Shown here one piece after another: positions 27,724-37,925 of a DNA stretch of 59,985 bases; within the stretch, counting starts at the first letter, position 1; every line of letters starts with the position of its first letter. Under the pieces are notes generated by a model. It searched no databases. It saw only the letters and a program-made list of their open reading frames with translations, and was not told where the DNA came from. This DNA is from Escherichia phage vB_EcoS_OddieOddie, in the sequence record OL539454.1; one strand, written 5' to 3'. The translations under genes were made by a program, and so were the position numbers.

Positions 27724-28622
27724 GGTTGCGGATATAAACTAAAGTCCGCAGTCTTAACCACATTTTCGAGTAATAACAGGATGTCAATATTGTAAACTCC
27801 CGTTATTGATCTGTCCTGCAATACGAAGCTTGCACCTTCCGCATCATCGTAATGAGTACGCGCTAGACCGTTTTCAATATATACGCGAGGACGATCTTCT
27901 GCAAAAGGTTTAATTTTATGCAAACCCTCAAAAAGACCGGGATCAACAGGATGTGCATTGCATTGAACATTTAAAATACGACGTATATCAGGCCACTCCG
28001 CATCAATAAGCTGTGTTCGCAACCAGCGACCTTCCGGATAATGAAATGTTACATTGTTCTTACTAACCTGAATATGTGTCGGGTTAGCTTTAATGCGCAG
28101 TATTTCTTTAATAGCAACAGACGGTATTATGCAGTCAATAGGGAATTGATTACCAAACCAATATTCCGCAATGGTGACGTTATTTGTAGCAAACAGGCTA
28201 CCGTTATTAATCAGAATACCGCAAGCCCACGGGCGGGACGCATCCGAGCCTACAAACGGAGCAACAGACTTCACACCGTGTACGAAGCGAGCACCGTCTA
28301 TTTCGTATAACTCCCCTTCAGGGAATACGTGAGGCGTTTCCTTGTCAATGCAGCGTATAGCAACACGAAACGGTCCGGATTTGATATTAAGTTTACCGTT
28401 AGCCATCATTGTTAACTGTACGGTTTCGTCACAGTTTGAAATAGCTTTAATCATAGGTCCAGCTTCGGGCTTGCAATCAATATCCAGCTCAATAGGGCTA
28501 CCCAGTGCAATAACACCGTTAAATCCCTGTACCTGTCCATCACGAATAAGAAAGCTGGTAAGACCTTCTACCAGTTCCTTTTTAGCGACGGAGCCTTGAA
28601 CAAATTTAAGAGCGTCTAACAT
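27669..28622 (-). CDS. hypothetical protein (possibly sliding-clamp-like)
   Basis: 317-aa ORF between polymerase and dpdA; function not determinable by eye. Confidence 0.4.
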   Translation of the reverse strand: MLDALKFVQGSVAKKELVEGLTSFLIRDGQVQGFNGVIALGSPIELDIDCKPEAGPMIKAISNCDETVQLTMMANGKLNIKSGPFRVAIRCIDKETPHVFPEGELYEIDGARFVHGVKSVAPFVGSDASRPWACGILINNGSLFATNNVTIAEYWFGNQFPIDCIIPSVAIKEILRIKANPTHIQVSKNNVTFHYPEGRWLRTQLIDAEWPDIRRILNVQCNAHPVDPGLFEGLHKIKPFAEDRPRVYIENGLARTHYDDAEGASFVLQDRSITGVYNIDILLLLENVVKTADFSLYPQPCAFFGENLRGVLIGERV

Positions 28623-28849
28623 TAGCGGTCCTCGATTGCTCTAATTGTGGTTAAATCTAATTCACATGTTGGAGGGTATCCATAAAGTCCCATTTGTTTT
28701 CCTTGTGCATTAAACCATGTACCTGACGGATCCTGCCACTGCTTAGGTGTCTTGTGGAGAAATACTACTCTGTTTTCACCGTAATAATTAATTCTTACAC
28801 CTGTGTGAGTATATTTACGTTTACCTTTTGGTCTTCTTAAGTTAGCCAT
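28622..28849 (-). CDS. hypothetical protein
   Basis: 75-aa basic ORF. Confidence 0.4.
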   Translation of the reverse strand: MANLRRPKGKRKYTHTGVRINYYGENRVVFLHKTPKQWQDPSGTWFNAQGKQMGLYGYPPTCELDLTTIRAIEDR

Positions 28850-29769
28850 CAGAACAACTCCATTACACGATCACGGAATGTGCCGTCATGGGTAGCGTTA
28901 ATGTTTGCAGCAATTACACCATACGCCCATAAATTGAAGGCAGCACGTGATTCATAGATTGTTGATAAACGTTCGTAAGTGAAACCGTTTTGCTCAAGGT
29001 ATTTAAGGACAGCGTCTTGTTCAATTTCAGTTAATGTTGAAACATGCTTGCCAAAATGGTGGCGATCCGGTGACTTATCAGATACGCGCATTGGACCCCA
29101 CGGAGGAGTAACCACACTTCCAAACGCTGCCGCTTGAATCCAGGAGGAAGAGTCGCAGCTATACCACGGATAACGTTCCATAATGGTTGTGGACGTAATA
29201 CCAAACGCATGAAGTTTAATCTTAGCACGTCCGCTACCGTCGCAAATGTATTTGTCCCACATGCGGTCCAGCCAAGTTTTAAGCGTGTCCGTGGAACGCC
29301 CTACCATGCCCCCGATGGTGATATATTCGTAGTTCTTCATGTAGTATTCAAGATAGCGGAAGTCCTCCCCAAAGTGAAAGCAAGGTAACGGTTTAGCACC
29401 GCGTGCTTCCATTTCAAGTTGGTTACGGTAGGTTTGCAACGGATCACCAATACCATCGAGCACTGACGCCATTACTGCGCCATCTTCTACACGAAGGATG
29501 TCTTTGTTGCGCTTAATGTATTCGCAGTATTCAACAATATCAATGTGAGCACCCAAAGAGTGCGCGGAGAATGCACCGGAGTCGAGAAACACTTTAGCCC
29601 CGTCAGCACGCATCTGATCAACATACTTTTGACGTCCAACGTAGTGGTATGATTCCAAAATATGGGGCAGATTGCGCGTGATATTTTTCTCATGCTCGGA
29701 CAGCTTTTCATAACGCTGCTGGCCGGGCATATATCCGTTTGTGTAAACTGCTGCCATAAAAACGTTCAT
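28849..29769 (-). CDS. dpdA: tRNA-guanine transglycosylase-like DNA-modifying enzyme (DpdA-like)
   Basis: 306-aa ORF with TGT-like nucleophile motif VFLDSGAFS; located beside folE/queD/queC/queE. Confidence 0.6.
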   Translation of the reverse strand: MNVFMAAVYTNGYMPGQQRYEKLSEHEKNITRNLPHILESYHYVGRQKYVDQMRADGAKVFLDSGAFSAHSLGAHIDIVEYCEYIKRNKDILRVEDGAVMASVLDGIGDPLQTYRNQLEMEARGAKPLPCFHFGEDFRYLEYYMKNYEYITIGGMVGRSTDTLKTWLDRMWDKYICDGSGRAKIKLHAFGITSTTIMERYPWYSCDSSSWIQAAAFGSVVTPPWGPMRVSDKSPDRHHFGKHVSTLTEIEQDAVLKYLEQNGFTYERLSTIYESRAAFNLWAYGVIAANINATHDGTFRDRVMELF

Positions 29770-29999
29770 TTTTGGAACGGTCCTCCAAACTGATCAATTA
29801 GTTCTAAAGTACGCCACACTTCATTAAATGCTTCGTCCGCTCGATGTTTAGCGTCAATAAGCTGCTGCTTTAAGATATTTGTAGGCGCATCATTCTGTAT
29901 TGCAGAGCAAGCATCCGCAGTACCTGCTTTAAGCTTGTAGAATGCAGCTTCTAAAATTAATTGTCTTGACATATTTTCCCCAATGACTAAAAAGCCCAT
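29766..29999 (-). CDS. hypothetical protein
   Basis: 77-aa ORF between dpdA and folE. Confidence 0.4.
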   Translation of the reverse strand: MGFLVIGENMSRQLILEAAFYKLKAGTADACSAIQNDAPTNILKQQLIDAKHRADEAFNEVWRTLELIDQFGGPFQK

Positions 30000-30043
30000 A
30001 CCAGTATTATGACCGATATGGGCTTGATCTGTAAAGCTATCTA

Positions 30044-30658
30044 TTATTTACAAGCTTCAAGGAACTCACGGCGCCATTCTTTACCAATATCGCTACCATG
30101 CTCCAGTTCTGTAGCGCCACGGAACGCTTTAGTAATAGTAGAGCTGCCGCATACCTGCTTAACACCGCGCGACTCCATGCACATATGCTTGGCGTCAATA
30201 TAAACACATACAGCTTTCGGGTTTAAATGCTCCTGAATAGCGTCTGCAATCTGGTTAGTAAGACGTTCCTGAACTTGCAGTCGACGACTAAAAGCATCCA
30301 CAACGCGAGACAGCTTACTAAGCCCAACGATCTTCCCATTGGGAACATAACCCACAACAGCATGACCGATAATAGGAGCCATGTGATGCTCACAATGACT
30401 GTATACAGGAATATCACGGACAATGACCATTTCATTGGTGTTTTCCGCTCCGTCCTCAAAGGTCTTAAACAACCCAGCAATATCTACATCATAACCGCCG
30501 AACCACGTCTGGTATGCTTTAGCAACACGTTCAGGAGTCTCTTCCAACCCAGGACGGAGTTCTGTTGAACCTTCAATATTTAAAAGTAATGAACTAATGG
30601 CAATTTTTACAGTATCTTTACGCATGGTTTGCAGTTTCCTTGTTGTTAATGTGGTCAT
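30044..30658 (-). CDS. folE: GTP cyclohydrolase I
   Basis: 204-aa ORF with SHCEHHMAPI and VGLSKLSRVVDAFSRRLQVQERLT signature. Confidence 0.8.
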   Translation of the reverse strand: MTTLTTRKLQTMRKDTVKIAISSLLLNIEGSTELRPGLEETPERVAKAYQTWFGGYDVDIAGLFKTFEDGAENTNEMVIVRDIPVYSHCEHHMAPIIGHAVVGYVPNGKIVGLSKLSRVVDAFSRRLQVQERLTNQIADAIQEHLNPKAVCVYIDAKHMCMESRGVKQVCGSSTITKAFRGATELEHGSDIGKEWRREFLEACK

Positions 30659-30660
30659 AC

Positions 30661-31152
30661 TTACAGGCTATAGTTTACGTGACATTTCGAAGTTTCTTCG
30701 ATGGTGCATTCTACAAGTTGAACACCATGTTCGTCAAGCAGTTGCGGTCCAATTACTTCAACCATATATGCAGCTAGGTTTTCGGCGGTAGGGTTGAACG
30801 GTAAAGATACCAGCGAGTTGTCAAAGTCCCTTACATCGTGACCCGTAGCTTCGTCACAAAGTTCAAGATCAACCTGAAGAGCTTTAATCAAAGGATCTTC
30901 TTCCCAGTGTAGGAATTTATGATCCCAATTATCTTCCAACCACTGGCAGAGCGTAGTTTTAACCACACTAAAATCGATAACTCGCCCAACGTCGTCCAGC
31001 AAAATACTATTGATTTCTTGCGACCCTTTTTTCGGTGCAACCTTAAAGTGAAACTTATAGTTGTGACCATGAAGGTGACGACACTTACTTTCATGACCCA
31101 CAACACGGTGACCAGCGCAAATTTCATGTGAACGAATTACTGTATAACTCAT
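30661..31152 (-). CDS. queD: 6-carboxy-5,6,7,8-tetrahydropterin synthase
   Basis: 163-aa ORF with CAGHRVVGH...CRHLHGHNYKF (Cys-His-Gly-His zinc motif). Confidence 0.75.
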   Translation of the reverse strand: MSYTVIRSHEICAGHRVVGHESKCRHLHGHNYKFHFKVAPKKGSQEINSILLDDVGRVIDFSVVKTTLCQWLEDNWDHKFLHWEEDPLIKALQVDLELCDEATGHDVRDFDNSLVSLPFNPTAENLAAYMVEVIGPQLLDEHGVQLVECTIEETSKCHVNYSL

Positions 31153-31766
31153 TTTAATACCTCTTTAGACTGTTCAATTTCTAACGCACGTTGCGCCGAC
31201 GCAATAATGTCTTTTAAGTCTTCTACCAGACTTTTATGACCGCGTTCGCCCGGCCGCAACGCTTTTTTGATTAAATGCTGCAAAGCTGGGTTCGTTGTTT
31301 CCCAGGCGGTAAGAACATCATACACATCTACAACAATTGAAGCAACATGCCCGTCAATATCTTTACCGCGGATAAGGCGCTGGTATTTGGTCAGACGGTT
31401 ATCTTCAGGATAGCTCTGGTAACGTGCTTCTGGAACCGTCATTGCAATTTCCATCACTTCTTTAAACTCGTGCTCGGTTATCGGACCTTCGCTAGCTTGC
31501 TTGGCATAATCCTCCGCAACGATATATCGCCAAGATATAACTGAATCCCTTTCTAACGGTATTACGTTATCACAGGATTTTTTATACCAGTCCCATCCTT
31601 GCTTATGGTTTTTCTTAAGAGAACCGTCAGCTAATTGAACTTCAAACTGCTCGTTTTGAAGAAAAATGGGCATCCCTTTTCCATCATGTTTGTGCCAGAT
31701 TTTATTAAGATTATCTTTCATTTTTACGCTCTCGCTGTACGTGAATGAACTTCGTAAACAACCCAA
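31149..31766 (-). CDS. hypothetical protein inside deazaguanine cluster
   Basis: 205-aa ORF between queD and the transporter gene; no motif recognised. Confidence 0.45.
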   Translation of the reverse strand: MGCLRSSFTYSESVKMKDNLNKIWHKHDGKGMPIFLQNEQFEVQLADGSLKKNHKQGWDWYKKSCDNVIPLERDSVISWRYIVAEDYAKQASEGPITEHEFKEVMEIAMTVPEARYQSYPEDNRLTKYQRLIRGKDIDGHVASIVVDVYDVLTAWETTNPALQHLIKKALRPGERGHKSLVEDLKDIIASAQRALEIEQSKEVLK

Positions 31767-32203
31767 AGGATGGCAGATGCTGTGAACTTACTTAAGCTCA
31801 TTGCTACCATTGATCCCGGATTAACAATACCTATAATACTTAAGAACACAATGGAGTCAATCGGTACAGCTACCAAAGAGCTGATAAATACTCGTTGATG
31901 GAAAGGCTTCTTAGTAATCGTATACACCGCGTAATCCGCAAACTCACTAAGTGCAAATGACGCAACGGATGCAACTACAACCGCAGGATCTCCGAACACC
32001 CAGCTAAGAATGCAACCGACAATCATTGCAGGGATAACGCCTTTGCCAGCGTTACGCTGTGCGTAGTCACGCAGGACGAAGATAATACCTACGAAGAAAG
32101 CCATCATGGGTACTACGCCAAGCGGCGTGTTAAGCATTGGAAGATAGGAAAAGCCCAGGTTTACGAATGTAATTGCAGCCAGATAAGCAACGATAAATTT
32201 CAT
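31724..32203 (-). CDS. queuosine-precursor transporter-like membrane protein (YhhQ/DUF165-like)
   Basis: 159-aa polytopic membrane protein in the que cluster; composition resembles YhhQ family. Confidence 0.45.
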   Translation of the reverse strand: MKFIVAYLAAITFVNLGFSYLPMLNTPLGVVPMMAFFVGIIFVLRDYAQRNAGKGVIPAMIVGCILSWVFGDPAVVVASVASFALSEFADYAVYTITKKPFHQRVFISSLVAVPIDSIVFLSIIGIVNPGSMVAMSLSKFTASAILWVVYEVHSRTARA

Positions 32204-32323
32204 ACTTTTGTTCTCCAGTTTTAACAGCGTTATTCGCTGGTTGTTGGGTTTAAAAGCTTTAGTAGTATAGTTGGGTTACCGCACCCTAAACAATAAGCTA
32301 GCGGTGCGGTTTTCGCGGTAAGA

Positions 32324-33031
32324 TCAAGCTTTGCTAATAAATTCGCTGTACCCTTTAGCACGGAGTTTACACGCCGGGCATTCCCCGCAACCATATCCCC
32401 AGTCATGCAGAGTGCGACGAACGCCGTTATAACACGTATGGGACTGTTCAATTACTGTGGTCAAGAAACCAACCTTATCCGCCAGCTCAAACGTTTCTGC
32501 TTTATTTAAACGCATAAGCGGTGTAACAAAATGGATATCAGTTTCATATCCAACGTTTAATGTAGCTTCAAGGAGATCAACAAACTGCTGACGACAATCC
32601 GGATAACCGCTATAGTCTGTTTCACATACGCCTGTAACCACATATCGGGCTCCAACCTTCTGCGCATAAGCGTGCGCGGTTGTCAGAAAAAGAGCATTAC
32701 GGTTTGGCACAAAACTTGCCGGAAGGTTACTGTGCTGTTCGTGATGTTCGTTAACATCACCTTCGTTCCCGATCAAAGCGCTATTACCGATCTGTTTCAA
32801 AGCTGGTAATTCAAAGACAACAAACGGGACATTGTGCTCTTTACAAATTTGATTAGCACAAGCCAGCTCAATGTTATGACGTTGACCGTATGCAAAACCA
32901 ATAGCGTAAACTTTATCATAGTTATTAAGCGCAAGACCTAGGCAAGTCACGCTATCCTGGCCGCCAGACAGGACGACAACGGCGGAGTTATGATTTTTTA
33001 CAGGGAATACCAGTTTATCTAATTTATTCAT
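32324..33031 (-). CDS. queC: 7-cyano-7-deazaguanine synthase
   Basis: 235-aa ORF with PP-loop VVLSGGQDSVTC and C-terminal zinc site CGECPACKLR. Confidence 0.8.
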   Translation of the reverse strand: MNKLDKLVFPVKNHNSAVVVLSGGQDSVTCLGLALNNYDKVYAIGFAYGQRHNIELACANQICKEHNVPFVVFELPALKQIGNSALIGNEGDVNEHHEQHSNLPASFVPNRNALFLTTAHAYAQKVGARYVVTGVCETDYSGYPDCRQQFVDLLEATLNVGYETDIHFVTPLMRLNKAETFELADKVGFLTTVIEQSHTCYNGVRRTLHDWGYGCGECPACKLRAKGYSEFISKA

Positions 33032-33032
33032 T

Positions 33033-33230
33033 TTAGAAACCTTTAAGGCTAATATTAAGGTTAACGACTACTTGTTCAACTACATCTTCACAGGTCATCT
33101 GACGCTTGTGAATTTCAAGTTCCGAATATATTTTCTTTGAAGCTGCGCGACACAGGGCATCATTCAATTCGTCTTGCAGACGTTGAATCTTCTGCATAAG
33201 CAGTATAGTTTCTTCATTCATCTTCCACAC
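33033..33230 (-). CDS. hypothetical protein
   Basis: 65-aa ORF between queC and queE. Confidence 0.35.
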   Translation of the reverse strand: MWKMNEETILLMQKIQRLQDELNDALCRAASKKIYSELEIHKRQMTCEDVVEQVVVNLNISLKGF

Positions 33231-33426
33231 CTTTAATATGACAAGGGTTGATTGTTACATTTGACATTACAATTGGATGATTACGTGCTCCAATTGTACT
33301 AACGTGATTAATATCTAATTCTACATGCACACCCTGCATAGTAGCATGAGCAATTGCAGAATTAAGTTTTTCAACCAGCTCAGTGATCATTTCCTGATGC
33401 TGTTTCGCTTCTTCCAAAGTGATCAT
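33214..33426 (-). CDS. hypothetical protein
   Basis: 70-aa ORF between queC and queE. Confidence 0.35.
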   Translation of the reverse strand: MITLEEAKQHQEMITELVEKLNSAIAHATMQGVHVELDINHVSTIGARNHPIVMSNVTINPCHIKGVEDE

Positions 33427-33681
33427 TTAAACCTCCGTTAATGTTTGAGTCCAGTCTAAGCCTTCAAGGTCTACATCAGCTATTTCATCGTACTCGTAAG
33501 CTCCCGGATCTGCTGGCAGCCATCTATCAAATCGATGGCTGAGTTCTGGAGGAATTGCTTCATACCCCCAAACCTTCCCATCCTTGTCGGCTGCCAGATA
33601 ATCAACTCGACTTGGAACGGTTAAAGTGACACCACAAAAATTAACATCTTTAGTATGCACAACCTGACTTAACACACGCAT
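33427..33681 (-). CDS. hypothetical protein
   Basis: 84-aa acidic ORF, coupled to queE. Confidence 0.4.
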   Translation of the reverse strand: MRVLSQVVHTKDVNFCGVTLTVPSRVDYLAADKDGKVWGYEAIPPELSHRFDRWLPADPGAYEYDEIADVDLEGLDWTQTLTEV

Positions 33682-34388
33682 TATTCCACCCCGATATATT
33701 TGTGAACCTGAAGCTGCAACGTGTACCCGTGTTTCATACAGCTTTGGATAACGGCTTGGATGTTACTGTGGTTAAGATCTTCATCCTGCTCGTCCATTGG
33801 CTGTAAATATATCTTACCCTTGAACCCCTTCGGAGGTCTAGCGATAAATGGCGTAGCTTGATGATCTAATGCTTGAAGAGGTAAACCGTCTTCCACGTTT
33901 ACACAGCACGCTTTAAGTACATATTTAAATGCATTAGCGCGGTACAGCACAGAAGGATGAATCTTTGAAGTCTTAGGACTGCATACAATGACAGGTAGCT
34001 GGGAAAAGTTCTTAGGTAAAGGCATAGACCCATTAGTTTCGATTTGCACCAAATAGCCCCGCGATAACAGTTGTTCAATGAACGGGTTAATTTGCTGACG
34101 GAACGGTTCACCCCCAGTAATAACCACAAGTGAGGTGCTATTGCCTGATTCCAGCTTACGGCTTTCGATTAAACGCATGATATCAACAATGTGGTAAAGA
34201 GAACGACCAACAGTATAATCCGTGTCGCAGCCCGGGCATTGCAGGTTACATCCAGCAAGACGCACAAATACAGCAGGTTGGCCGCAGAACGGACCTTCAC
34301 CCTGAATGGTAGAGAATACCGAATGCACGTCTAAATACATATCGTTTTCTTTAGAACGAGACTCGGGAGCTTGTTGATTAATATCCAT
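33681..34388 (-). CDS. queE: 7-carboxy-7-deazaguanine synthase (radical SAM)
   Basis: 235-aa ORF with STIQGEGPFCGQPAVFVRLAGCNLQCPGCDTDY. Confidence 0.8.
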   Translation of the reverse strand: MDINQQAPESRSKENDMYLDVHSVFSTIQGEGPFCGQPAVFVRLAGCNLQCPGCDTDYTVGRSLYHIVDIMRLIESRKLESGNSTSLVVITGGEPFRQQINPFIEQLLSRGYLVQIETNGSMPLPKNFSQLPVIVCSPKTSKIHPSVLYRANAFKYVLKACCVNVEDGLPLQALDHQATPFIARPPKGFKGKIYLQPMDEQDEDLNHSNIQAVIQSCMKHGYTLQLQVHKYIGVE

Positions 34389-34457
34389 CTTAAATCCTCT
34401 AGTGAAAAAGAAAGCGCCTCATTGGGCGCCTTCATTATAACGTGATATGTTTTGATA

Positions 34458-35270
34458 TTACAAGCCGTTCAGGGCTTCCGGTACTGGTACAGGTACGCGA
34501 CCAGTCACACCATTAAATTTCTTCCAGCGTGCATACTGGGTTTTAACAGTATCTTCGTTCAGACCGTGACGACCAGCCAGGTTCAGAACATAAGAGATCG
34601 GGGCAGGCTGACCCAGCGTAGCGCTAATCTGGTCCATCAGAGCCCAAGCACGACCGCAGGAAGTTTCCGGTTGCGGACGGCGAACACCGTTCTGTTCCGG
34701 CATACGATTAGCTTCTTTTTCTTTCTCGCGGAGCTCTTTAGCGCGTGCTTTTTCCGCTTCTTTTTCTGCCTGTTTTGCAGCACGGATCTTGTCTTTGAAG
34801 CCTTTAATAGTAGCTTCCAGACCATCCACCAGACCCTGAGCAGAAGTTACAGCACCGGACAGGTCTTCACCTTTAGACTTCTTAACGACAGCTTTCAGCT
34901 CTTTCAGAGCTTCTTTAATGGTCTTCAGGTTTGCAGATCCCTGAGTTTCTGCTTCCGTGATCTGTTCAACAGTGCTTTCGTCGGTGACGGTAGCCAAAGA
35001 GTTTTTCAGGATTTCAGCAGCGTTAGCAATCGCATTAAATTTGTTTTCCGCTTCAGTGCGGATTTCAGCTTGTTTCTTTTCAGCGGCAGCTTTTTTCTCT
35101 GCTTCTTTTTTCTCTTTTGCTACGCGTGCAGCTTCAGCGGCAGCGGCTTTCTTAGCTTCTGCATCATTCACAGTAGCTTCTTTCTTTGCAGGTTTAGCAG
35201 ATTTTGCAGCGGCGGCAGCAGCGGCTGCGGCAGCAGCTTTTTTGTCTTCAATGTTGCTCATTCTCTTCAC
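34458..35270 (-). CDS. Lys/Ala-rich low-complexity protein (histone-like DNA-binding candidate)
   Basis: 270-aa ORF with 12-residue poly-Ala run and K/A/E repeats, then a non-repetitive C-terminal domain. Confidence 0.45.
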   Translation of the reverse strand: MKRMSNIEDKKAAAAAAAAAAAKSAKPAKKEATVNDAEAKKAAAAEAARVAKEKKEAEKKAAAEKKQAEIRTEAENKFNAIANAAEILKNSLATVTDESTVEQITEAETQGSANLKTIKEALKELKAVVKKSKGEDLSGAVTSAQGLVDGLEATIKGFKDKIRAAKQAEKEAEKARAKELREKEKEANRMPEQNGVRRPQPETSCGRAWALMDQISATLGQPAPISYVLNLAGRHGLNEDTVKTQYARWKKFNGVTGRVPVPVPEALNGL

Positions 35271-35388
35271 TCCGAATTGTTATGGGTTCGTTTGTTACCA
35301 ACGGGGTTAAATGTACCAAAGGATTTTGTGACACGCAACCCCTTATCTGAATATTTTTAAAAATATTTTTGATCAAGCTTAGAACTTA

Positions 35389-35883
35389 CTAACTCTTTGC
35401 CCCTCTGCCCGGTGTCCATGCGGCTTGCAATGCGGGTTGCTCACAAACGACCCTGGCACCGGAAATAATACCACCCTCCCGTTCAGCATCGTATTTGACA
35501 CGGGCAGGTTTCCAAAGTCCTTCATCCATTGACGGAACGTATTGTCCAATTTGAGGTGAGCAAAAGCCTTGGATATCGTATTCCACACAGAATTCGGCTT
35601 GTGCGCTGATTTGGGCGTGATCCAGGATTGTTTCTGGAAGTTGCGTAAAGTAATCAAACAAAATGCGCTCAACGATTTCCCGTTCATAAGGTGCAGCTCC
35701 TAAGTTTTCTGTCAAGTTAATATAAAGCATTTGAAGATCAACATCTCCAAGATCATGTAAATCGTCTACTGGTGTCACCAGTGTTGACTCAGGGCAACAA
35801 ATAATTCCAAGTTGGTGTAGTGTCAGCCAATTGGGATGCTTTGCCAAGAGTTCAAATTTATCTGTATCAATCAGGACGTACAT
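35389..35883 (-). CDS. hypothetical protein
   Basis: 164-aa ORF. Confidence 0.4.
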   Translation of the reverse strand: MYVLIDTDKFELLAKHPNWLTLHQLGIICCPESTLVTPVDDLHDLGDVDLQMLYINLTENLGAAPYEREIVERILFDYFTQLPETILDHAQISAQAEFCVEYDIQGFCSPQIGQYVPSMDEGLWKPARVKYDAEREGGIISGARVVCEQPALQAAWTPGRGAKS

Positions 35884-35942
35884 TGCAATCCCCTATAAAT
35901 AAGTAATGCCCCAATAGTAGGGGCATTAGATGTTGAAGTCAA

Positions 35943-37925
35943 TTAGAACGGAACGTAATCCGGATCATCTACTTGTACAGGGTTAACCACATTGTTCACC
36001 GTTATGCCTTGCGTATTCTGTGAAACAATATCATCCCAGCTCACATCATCATTATAGCTTGGACCTTCTGTTGTTCCATCCTGCCCGTATACTTTAACCT
36101 GAATAGCTTCGTCGTCCTGTGGTGCTTCAAACTTACCGAAACACGTACCATCATAATCATAGTTCAAAATCTCAGGCCATTTCTTATTGGTATGAACTTT
36201 GATGTATTTCGGCGTTTTGAGCATCGCAGCAACATCAAGGGCTTCTTCAATAGTTTGTGGTAAAGGAAGATGCGTCCTTTTCTTCCACCATGCAACCGCT
36301 TTACGACCAGCCCAGTCGCCATGCAGCAAAGCTACCCATTCGCTGAATATTTTACTACCGCAATAATAAGTCACCTTCATTGTTGGAGGTTTGGAGCTGT
36401 CATTGCGTTTAGTGTGCTTCGCATAAGTAACATGCGTAACTTTGAAGTCTTCAACTACCGGAATGTCCTGTTTGATCAGTGCTTCGGTACTTGCTGCCTT
36501 TTTAAGTTTCGTCTGGAACTTAAACTCATGACCGCAAAATCCTTCTTTAACATAATCCGTTCCACGTAGTCTAAATCCCTTCAAATATAATTGTTGAACT
36601 TGTTCCTGTGTAACGCTGTCCATAGGAATTGGTGCAAAGCCACCACAATAGCGAGCAGATGCATGATTATACGACCCGCACACATCGCATTCTTTAACCG
36701 GAGCAGTACCAGCACCTTTTTCGCCCGGGCGCTTGGGTTTAACAGGGTCGTTAATAGGGCCCAAACGACGCGTATTACCGCTGAAATCCAGTACAAGGCA
36801 GTTCTGCTTAGGGCTTGCTGCAATAGCTTGCAAGCGACCTTCCTGCGTGGAAAGATCAAAACCCTCCGCATATACCGGACGCGTACCGCGACCCAACATC
36901 TGAACCCATAGCACCGCCGAGGCAGTGGGGCGAAGCATGATAATTAGATCAAGCATCGGATGGTCGAACCCTGTGGTTAAGACGTTGTTGTTCGTCAGGG
37001 CTCGAAACTCTCCACGCTTGAATTTTTCAATAATTTCATCACGCTCTTTTGCATCAAGCTTTGAGTGAATACATCCGCAGCTAATACCCATATCGTTCAG
37101 CATATCACACGCATCTTTAGCGTGTTCAATACCAGAACAAAATATAAGCCAGCTTTGACGGTCTTCACCACATTCAATGGCTTCCTCAAGTGCGCGGAGT
37201 GTTGCGTCGTCGCGGTTCACCGCACTTTGCAGCTCACTCTGAATAAACTCACCGCCTCGTTTACCTACCCCGTTGATGTCCAGTTCCATCTTTGTACGCT
37301 TTGGCACAACTGGAAGTAAATAGCCTTGCTCCAGGAACCAGTTAAAGGCTTCAGGGGTAGTTGCATCAAACGTTACTTTATCAAATAAAGCATCATCGTC
37401 TTCGTTTTCCTTAACAATTGAGCCGTAACCCAGTCGGTAAGGTGTAGCGGTAAGACCGATAATTTTTAAATACGGGTTAACTTCACGCAATGCTGCAAAG
37501 AACTTCTTATACATTGTTGCATCACGCGGACTAATAAGGTGCGCTTCATCCACAAAGATTAGATCAACCTTGCCGAACTTTTTAGGATGCTTGGCAACAG
37601 ATGCAATCCCCGCAAATGTGATAAGATTATAAACTTCTTTACGCTTCAAACCTGCGCTGTAAATACCTGCTGGCGCTTCAGGCCAGACTTTCATTAATTT
37701 ATCATAGTTTTGTGCAATTAACTCTTTGACGTGAGTTAACATCATTACGCGCTGGTTTGGATACCATTTATAAAGCAGATCGAGGAACCCCGCGATAACG
37801 AGCGATTTTCCTGTCCCTGTTGGTAACAGGATTAAAGGGTTCCCCGCGTTACCCTTTTCAGCATCAAAATAGCGGAATACGCTATAAACTGCTTCCTGTT
37901 GATAATCGCGGAGCTGCATAATCAA
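35943..37925 (-). CDS. superfamily 2 DEAH-box DNA helicase
   Basis: 660-aa ORF; Walker A LLPTGTGKS, Walker B FVDEAHLI, C-terminal Cys cluster. Confidence 0.7.
   Translation of the reverse strand: MIMQLRDYQQEAVYSVFRYFDAEKGNAGNPLILLPTGTGKSLVIAGFLDLLYKWYPNQRVMMLTHVKELIAQNYDKLMKVWPEAPAGIYSAGLKRKEVYNLITFAGIASVAKHPKKFGKVDLIFVDEAHLISPRDATMYKKFFAALREVNPYLKIIGLTATPYRLGYGSIVKENEDDDALFDKVTFDATTPEAFNWFLEQGYLLPVVPKRTKMELDINGVGKRGGEFIQSELQSAVNRDDATLRALEEAIECGEDRQSWLIFCSGIEHAKDACDMLNDMGISCGCIHSKLDAKERDEIIEKFKRGEFRALTNNNVLTTGFDHPMLDLIIMLRPTASAVLWVQMLGRGTRPVYAEGFDLSTQEGRLQAIAASPKQNCLVLDFSGNTRRLGPINDPVKPKRPGEKGAGTAPVKECDVCGSYNHASARYCGGFAPIPMDSVTQEQVQQLYLKGFRLRGTDYVKEGFCGHEFKFQTKLKKAASTEALIKQDIPVVEDFKVTHVTYAKHTKRNDSSKPPTMKVTYYCGSKIFSEWVALLHGDWAGRKAVAWWKKRTHLPLPQTIEEALDVAAMLKTPKYIKVHTNKKWPEILNYDYDGTCFGKFEAPQDDEAIQVKVYGQDGTTEGPSYNDDVSWDDIVSQNTQGITVNNVVNPVQVDDPDYVPF

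Follow-up and report, generated by a model that had tools for sequence, protein, structure and literature searches.

The question raised by this locus is why a phage that encodes a full pathway for the 7-deazaguanine base preQ0, and that grows on a host bearing the transporter YhhQ, keeps a transporter gene of its own under strong purifying selection. The locus lies in the genome of Escherichia phage vB_EcoS_OddieOddie (sequence record OL539454.1), a Seuratvirus (Queuovirinae) and a CAjan/Seurat-like coliphage; the window analyzed here is the whole stretch of 59,985 nucleotides (nt). The gene, at 31724..32203 on the minus strand, encodes a compact VUT/YhhQ-like (PF02592 superfamily) membrane protein of 159 amino acids (aa), the orthologue of CAjan gp41 and a putative importer of a 7-deazaguanine base. 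An earlier note on this DNA had described a small polytopic membrane protein inside the que cluster and proposed that it is a YhhQ-family transporter that lets the phage import precursors as well as synthesize them. The first part of that description is borne out by the open reading frame (ORF), its six hydrophobic segments and its queC and queD neighbours. Profile comparisons place the protein in the VUT/YhhQ (QPTR) superfamily, as a divergent compact subfamily. This subfamily is tightly associated genomically with the DNA guanine transglycosylase DpdA, and we consider it probable that the protein imports a 7-deazaguanine base that feeds DpdA.

The ORF starts with an ATG at 32203 and stops with a TAA at 31726-31724. 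A GGAG Shine-Dalgarno sequence can be read 9 nt 5' of the ATG (32213..32216, minus strand), and only 2 nt separate the stop codon from the start codon of the following gene (ATG at 31721), so that the genes are tightly packed. The G+C content of the gene is that of the whole window. More than 90% of the surrounding region (28800-34400) aligns at approximately 92% nt identity with Escherichia phages Seurat, CAjan and Skure and with some 30 more, and the protein is 98.7-100% identical in aa sequence to the products of genes annotated 'preQ0 transporter' in CAjan, WildeMaa, Greed and other phages. It matches phrog_4899 (E 4e-48), a PHROGs family of unknown function, and homologues were found by tblastn in 76 phage records. 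Synonymous and non-synonymous codon differences from four Seuratvirus orthologues were 21:2, 32:1, 14:2 and 37:4. Because these differences are overwhelmingly synonymous, we conclude that the gene is real and that strong purifying selection acts on it.

This selection bears on the idea that the gene is the decaying remnant of a captured host yhhQ, truncated and no longer functional. With 62 residues fewer than E. coli YhhQ and scores under the curated thresholds of the family, the protein could pass for a remnant. However, strong purifying selection, with codon differences of up to 37:4, is not what decay would leave, the short length is common to more than 100 homologues of 153-176 aa, and the shortening takes loops and termini and no helices. 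We regard a remnant as very improbable. Two ideas of this kind were rejected: a truncated pseudogene by the conservation, and a recent capture of the host yhhQ by the lack of significant BLASTP similarity to the host gene.

A search against the DUF165/YhhQ family profile found the similarity that the earlier note had expected. The Pfam profile Vut_1 (PF02592) matched with 25.5 bits (E 1.9e-5, profile positions 58-140), 1.7 bits short of its gathering score of 27.2. The match to TIGR00697, the 'queuosine precursor transporter' equivalog, covered residues 70-128 only and, at 21.7 bits (E 1.4e-4), missed the cut-off of 50.95. No significant alignment to E. coli K-12 YhhQ came out of BLASTP, and profile methods were therefore needed. 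There were only chance matches (E 0.14 and above) to PDB sequences with phmmer, and it appears that no structure of a YhhQ-family protein has been solved. In BFVD there was one significant viral match without an informative name and one to a 'putative vitamin uptake transporter'. A database search recovered 118 homologues, most of them 153-176 aa long and on phage-sized contigs, and most with a precomputed PF02592 match. A more distant set of homologues consists of cellular proteins of 187-193 aa that carry the JGI name 'queuosine precursor transporter'.

Further comparisons used an alignment of 33 members of the short subfamily (A1). PF02592 was matched by all 33 members at E<0.01, the best at 4.7e-8. 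With hhalign, A1 aligned to a profile of 18 diverse E. coli-type YhhQ proteins with a probability of 92.4% (E 5.1e-7), phage residues 3-129 corresponding to YhhQ residues 16-167, and to the cellular group of 187-193 aa with a probability of 99.6% (E 8e-25). The cellular group in turn aligned to E. coli-type YhhQ at 96.4%. In the alignment of A1 to E. coli-type YhhQ, the subfamily-invariant residues N15, D46, R50, S79, D90, S108, D116 and F120 pair with E. coli N28, D57, R61, S115, D126, S146, D154 and F158, and N28 and F158 are nearly invariant across the E. coli-type set. Because no residue is universally conserved in the YhhQ family (Zallot 2017, PMC5372724), we take these shared polar residues as supportive and not as defining. 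The comparisons support homology to the superfamily, and the YhhQ-family identity proposed in the earlier note stands to that extent; it does not extend to orthology. Because the BLASTP comparison was not significant and the TIGR00697 score was far from its cut-off, the phage protein is not filed as a YhhQ orthologue and, judged from these scores, is not an equivalog of the E. coli protein.

The predicted topology and fold are consistent with this placement. Hydropathy analysis gave six hydrophobic segments (residues about 1-20, 28-44, 55-70, 73-95, 104-125 and 130-150), and positive charge in loops 45-54 and 98-104 and at the C-terminus indicates an N-in/C-in topology by the positive-inside rule. 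An AlphaFold2 model generated from A1, with a predicted local distance difference test score (pLDDT) of 84 and a predicted template modelling score (pTM) of 0.73, has a helix at residues 2-20, a beta-hairpin at 23-32, a short helix, and helices at 38-70, 73-97, 101-124 and 129-158. A model of E. coli YhhQ (pLDDT 89) has the same order of elements, with two loop inserts and longer termini in addition. The phage protein is predicted to share the fold of the E. coli YhhQ model, a helix bundle like that of the S-components of energy-coupling factor (ECF) transporters. Six segments, a cytoplasmic C-terminus and this predicted fold agree with the topology of the YhhQ family.

We analyzed the genomic context of the compact subfamily in 83 viral loci, 80 of them from a scan of IMG/VR with A1 and three from cultured phages. 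The IMG/VR loci are fragments, often with 6-10 kb on each side; synthesis genes may sit elsewhere on those genomes. The loci were searched for DpdA, FolE, QueD, QueE and QueC with iterated hidden Markov models (HMMs) that were built for this analysis and sample-checked against PHROGs. These models replaced tblastn searches with the OddieOddie DpdA and Que proteins, which had missed most of the environmental DpdA homologues. We found a DpdA homologue in 71 of the 83 loci, and in 52 it was located within 600 nt downstream of the transporter gene on the same strand. The short DpdAs (about 228 aa) match the same PHROG as the OddieOddie DpdA, with E about 1e-43. A full preQ0 pathway, as in OddieOddie, was present in 18 loci. 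There were 47 loci (26 clusters at 90% identity) with the transporter and DpdA and without any preQ0 synthesis gene in the stretch covered.

A further ORF, of about 80 aa, lies between the transporter and DpdA genes in 25 loci (alignment A4; for example, L052:10458-10694). Single sequences of this family had no Pfam QueF match, and its QueF-like assignment rests on one match of the family profile, to the archaeosine synthase QueF-Like (PDB 5jyx_A; E 1.5e-5), which is nearly full length and includes the Cys-Pro motif. Invariant residues of the family include Y4, C12, D15, E34, Q50-E51 and H70. QueF-family enzymes act on preQ0, either free or already in nucleic acid, and the small protein is possibly a mini QueF/QueF-L whose substrate would be imported preQ0 or the dPreQ0 of DNA. 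In Arthrobacter phage Aoka, gp39 occupies the same position between the transporter and DpdA and passes the Pfam QueF threshold with 29.5 bits.

Complete genomes of cultured phages gave the same picture. The transporter and a DpdA homologue are present in Aoka (L005; cassette at 29034-30518) and, as a pair, in Vibrio phages PS25B.1 (L094) and BUCT006 (L095), where the DpdA is annotated 'hypothetical protein'. A six-frame HMM search of these three genomes, with OddieOddie as the positive control, found none of FolE, QueD, QueE or QueC. A role in salvage is supported because the transporter is coupled to the enzyme that inserts the base and to an enzyme family that acts on preQ0, above all where no synthesis genes were found. 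A broader proposal, which we advance tentatively and as a possibility, is that VUTs of about 160 aa form a virus-centred, DpdA-coupled lineage apart from cellular YhhQ. Together with DpdA, and often with a mini QueF-like or short QueC-like enzyme, they would make up a 'salvage-only' DNA hypermodification cassette of two or three genes, and Seuratviruses would have kept the gene as an accessory from this ancestral module.

Other arrangements were also seen. The example cassette L052:9986-12566 is flanked by a DUF7768/nucleoside 2-deoxyribosyltransferase-like gene and by an N6/N4 DNA methylase gene. In five loci (L048, L060, L065, L071 and L072), the transporter gene is followed by one for a short PP-loop protein resembling QueC (182 aa; phrog_1550, E 1.5e-39) and then by dpdA, and QueD, QueE and FolE are not nearby; a QueC-like enzyme in a place where the preceding steps are not encoded points to some other chemistry on an imported base. 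On a Shewanella sp. contig (L087/L088), genes for a DEAD/ResIII helicase, for a protein of the TGT family with 302 aa (PF01702) and for a VUT of 154 aa follow one another, the last two overlapping by 4 nt. This run is bordered by a helix-turn-helix (HTH) repressor and an integrase or transposase, and it resembles a prophage module or a small Dpd-like mobile island. In Rhizobium phage RHEph06 (L003 6968-7489) and Vibrio phage VpKK5 (L004 7001-7489), the homologue lies between the genes for a single-stranded DNA-binding protein (SSB) and a Cas4-domain exonuclease, approximately 6 kb upstream of queE. Where the transporter gene stands with respect to the que genes therefore varies among Queuovirinae-like phages.

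The following mechanism would account for these observations; we infer transport, its direction and its substrate from homology, predicted fold and gene context. The six-segment protein, a minimal inner-membrane carrier, would pick up free 7-deazaguanine base on the outer side of the membrane and release it into the cytoplasm. It would act alone, without an ATPase module, as has been proposed for E. coli YhhQ, which is required for preQ0 uptake and is thought to act solo (PMC5372724). A solitary mode would be needed because E. coli K-12 lacks an ECF module (PMC5372724). The imported base would most probably be preQ0, the substrate of the phage DpdA, and would supplement the preQ0 that the phage FolE, QueD, QueE and QueC produce. 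DpdA would then exchange the base for guanine in phage DNA, giving dPreQ0 and protection from restriction. We favour preQ0 as the likeliest substrate because QueC is present, because no QueF match above threshold was found among the proteins of the 28849-34388 cluster (Pfam and NCBIfam), and because CAjan DNA carries dPreQ0 (PMC7544227).

Much about this gene is already known from CAjan. CAjan gp41 is annotated 'putative preQ0 transporter' in GenBank, as are its counterparts in Skure, Greed, WildeMaa, SeppeHuegi and others. Kot et al. 2020, who named the gene yhhQ, depicted it as another route to preQ0 and made a deletion mutant (PMC7544227). Modification was lost in CAjan ΔfolE, ΔqueC and ΔdpdA (PMC7544227). 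Olsen et al. 2023 placed yhhQ directly downstream of queC in CAjan (PMC10484667), Hutinet et al. 2019 reported that some phages encode YhhQ homologues (PMC6884629), and archaeal viruses with YhhQ have been reported as well (PMC8651126). The strategy that the earlier note had called unusual for a virus is thus not new, since the gene was already annotated as a preQ0 transporter and discussed (PMC7544227, PMC6884629, PMC10484667). Gene, annotation and knockout are all known from CAjan, and nothing here is new for OddieOddie itself.

Public sequencing reads bear on the published deletion. In SRR14312197/199/200 (P0095; L089-L091), a CAjan-like phage has yhhQ codons 1-54 joined, in the same reading frame, to the part of the gp40 gene that encodes its last 112 residues. 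The fusion corresponds to a 550-bp deletion, the exact size given for CAjan ΔyhhQ (59,670 to 59,120 bp). From this match in size, it follows that the published ΔyhhQ allele also truncates gp40, removing its N-terminus.

Several observations weigh against import of a base for DpdA. Taken singly, the sequence does not reach the curated cut-offs of Pfam and NCBIfam and has no significant BLASTP alignment to E. coli YhhQ, and transport by the short subfamily would follow from homology and context. The phage makes its own preQ0 and its host already has YhhQ, so that import looks redundant. There is no preQ1 riboswitch ahead of the gene: in an Rfam scan of 28000-36000 on both strands, all matches had E 1.4 or above, and no preQ1 riboswitch family was among them. 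Riboswitches of this type frequently control YhhQ/QPTR genes in bacteria, but they are not obligatory. In brain heart infusion (BHI) medium, modification of CAjan ΔyhhQ was like that of the wild type, and no phenotype ties the gene to modification (PMC7544227). Published work shows that modification in rich medium does not require the gene (PMC7544227), and its function in Seuratviruses is auxiliary. Substrate specificity varies within the family, the E. coli protein transporting preQ0 and preQ1 and the Chlamydia protein queuine (PMC11130926); preQ0 is for this reason the likeliest substrate only, and we propose substrate and direction conditionally. Finally, phage YhhQ homologues were uncorrelated with pathway groups in the survey of Hutinet et al. 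2019 (PMC6884629). In Supplementary Data 1 of that survey, the rows for CAjan, Seurat and Greed list DpdA, FolE, QueD, QueE and QueC and give no accession in the YhhQ column. As far as these rows go, the empty entries fit the failure of pairwise searches, the 2019 PSI-BLAST census seems to have overlooked the compact subfamily, and this may be why it showed no correlation between YhhQ and pathway.

The deletion result and the redundancy could also be explained by a VUT-family carrier with another substrate or direction. Such a protein might bring in preQ1, queuine or a different purine-like base; it might instead carry out the guanine that DpdA releases, or serve to balance or retain the large preQ0 pool of the phage. 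The differences in specificity within the family (PMC11130926), the lack of a universal residue (PMC5372724) and the distance of the phage subfamily from the only members that have been assayed are all compatible with this, as are a full phage preQ0 pathway alongside host YhhQ and modification that is unchanged in ΔyhhQ (PMC7544227). Against these stand four points: QueC without a QueF match above threshold, together with the dPreQ0 of CAjan, identifies preQ0 as the base used by DpdA here; cassettes that lack synthesis genes need some supply of base; the QueF-like partner points to incoming preQ0; and the known members of the family are importers. We consider another substrate or direction unlikely, though it is the alternative to which we give most weight.

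The deletion without a modification phenotype (PMC7544227) would likewise be expected if the protein had been reused for something other than transport, such as superinfection exclusion, membrane remodelling or a holin-like role, its place in the que cluster being incidental. Small polytopic phage membrane proteins often serve in such ways, and the Rhizobium and Vibrio homologues next to the SSB and Cas4-like nuclease genes are about 6 kb away from the que genes. However, the subfamily shows no variation at the polar intramembrane positions that it has in common with E. coli YhhQ, and the predicted fold is that of a substrate-binding S-component. In addition, the link to DpdA spans unrelated phages, including an actinophage, Vibrio podophage-like phages and marine contigs. 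Reuse of this kind therefore seems improbable to us, and import of a base for DpdA remains the reading that we prefer.

If the wider pattern of transporter-DpdA cassettes without synthesis genes is confirmed, DNA deazaguanylation in many environmental phages would depend on base scavenged from the medium or the host, and phage anti-restriction would be tied to the environmental supply of queuosine precursors. The DpdA-coupled compact subfamily and the salvage-only cassettes would then be of wider interest than the OddieOddie gene.

In OddieOddie the genes of the cluster form a single run on the minus strand, in the order QueE, two small ORFs, QueC, the transporter, a gp40-like protein, QueD, FolE, a small ORF and DpdA. 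The QueE-like radical SAM enzyme (33681..34388) matches phrog_2076 (E 1.4e-68), and its matches to TIGR04322 and TIGR04508 are sub-threshold. QueC, the 7-cyano-7-deazaguanine synthase (32324..33031; Pfam QueC E 1.2e-74, TIGR00364 242 bits), is directly upstream of the transporter, and the gp40-like gene (31149..31721; phrog_23361, E 1.2e-94), whose product is the orthologue of CAjan gp40 and of unknown function, is directly downstream. They are followed by QueD, a 6-carboxytetrahydropterin synthase (30661..31152; Pfam PTPS E 1.9e-24, phrog_2389 E 4.5e-57), FolE, a GTP cyclohydrolase I (30044..30658; Pfam GTP_cyclohydroI E 6e-63, NF006825 208 bits), and DpdA (28849..29769; phrog_887, E 8e-96), the orthologue of CAjan gp35 and the presumed user of the imported or synthesized base. 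The gp40-like gene probably starts at the ATG at 31721 and not at the listed TTG at 31766, which overlaps the transporter gene, because the phrog_23361 match begins at residue 16 of the listed ORF and CAjan gp40 is annotated at the equivalent start. The gp40-like protein has no Pfam match, and its C-terminal 60-90 residues or so match several PHROGs of unknown function.

The spacer between queC and yhhQ (32204..32323, minus strand; 120 nt) is nearly invariant in Seuratviruses and contains a stable hairpin at 32278-32310. The predicted RNA fold has an energy of -28.1 kcal/mol (z -2.44). There were 1-4 differences per 120 nt from CAjan, L007 and L008, mostly between the arms of the stem, and none in the 3' 70 nt. 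The spacer is better conserved than the transporter coding sequence, which has 16-41 differences per 480 nt. A scan for consensus promoters and terminators around the transporter gene gave counts no higher than in shuffled sequences, with no site in this spacer. The spacer might act as an internal promoter, a site of processing or an element of regulation.

How the phage protein relates to known transporters can be stated at several levels. Like the genes of E. coli-type YhhQ/QPTR proteins, its gene is linked genomically to 7-deazaguanine genes. The two proteins differ in length (159 aa compared to 221 aa for E. coli YhhQ), the phage protein lacking the 13-residue N-terminal extension, the 16-residue insert between hydrophobic segments 3 and 4, the insert ahead of the last helix and the C-terminal tail. 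They also differ in role, which is putatively DNA modification for the phage protein and tRNA queuosine for YhhQ. The likeness to the solitary ECF-type proteins BtuM and BioY and to RibU, ThiT, FolT and YkoE, which carry vitamins or cofactors and are 8-16% identical to the phage protein, is one of fold and mode of action and not of family membership. The nearest cellular relatives are the PF02592 proteins of 187-193 aa (P0097, P0108 and others), which have a longer N-terminus and share the motifs VLRD..QR, SEFAD.AVYT and DSIVFL; around one of them, P0108, on a 762-kb cellular contig, there were no Q or Dpd genes nearby. The closest likeness is to CAjan gp41 (YP_009196835), which is the same gene: it is equal in length, 98.7% identical in aa sequence and equally placed between queC and gp40/queD. 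Nothing of substance differs between the two, and OddieOddie, with approximately 92% nt identity over the cluster, is in this respect another Seuratvirus isolate.

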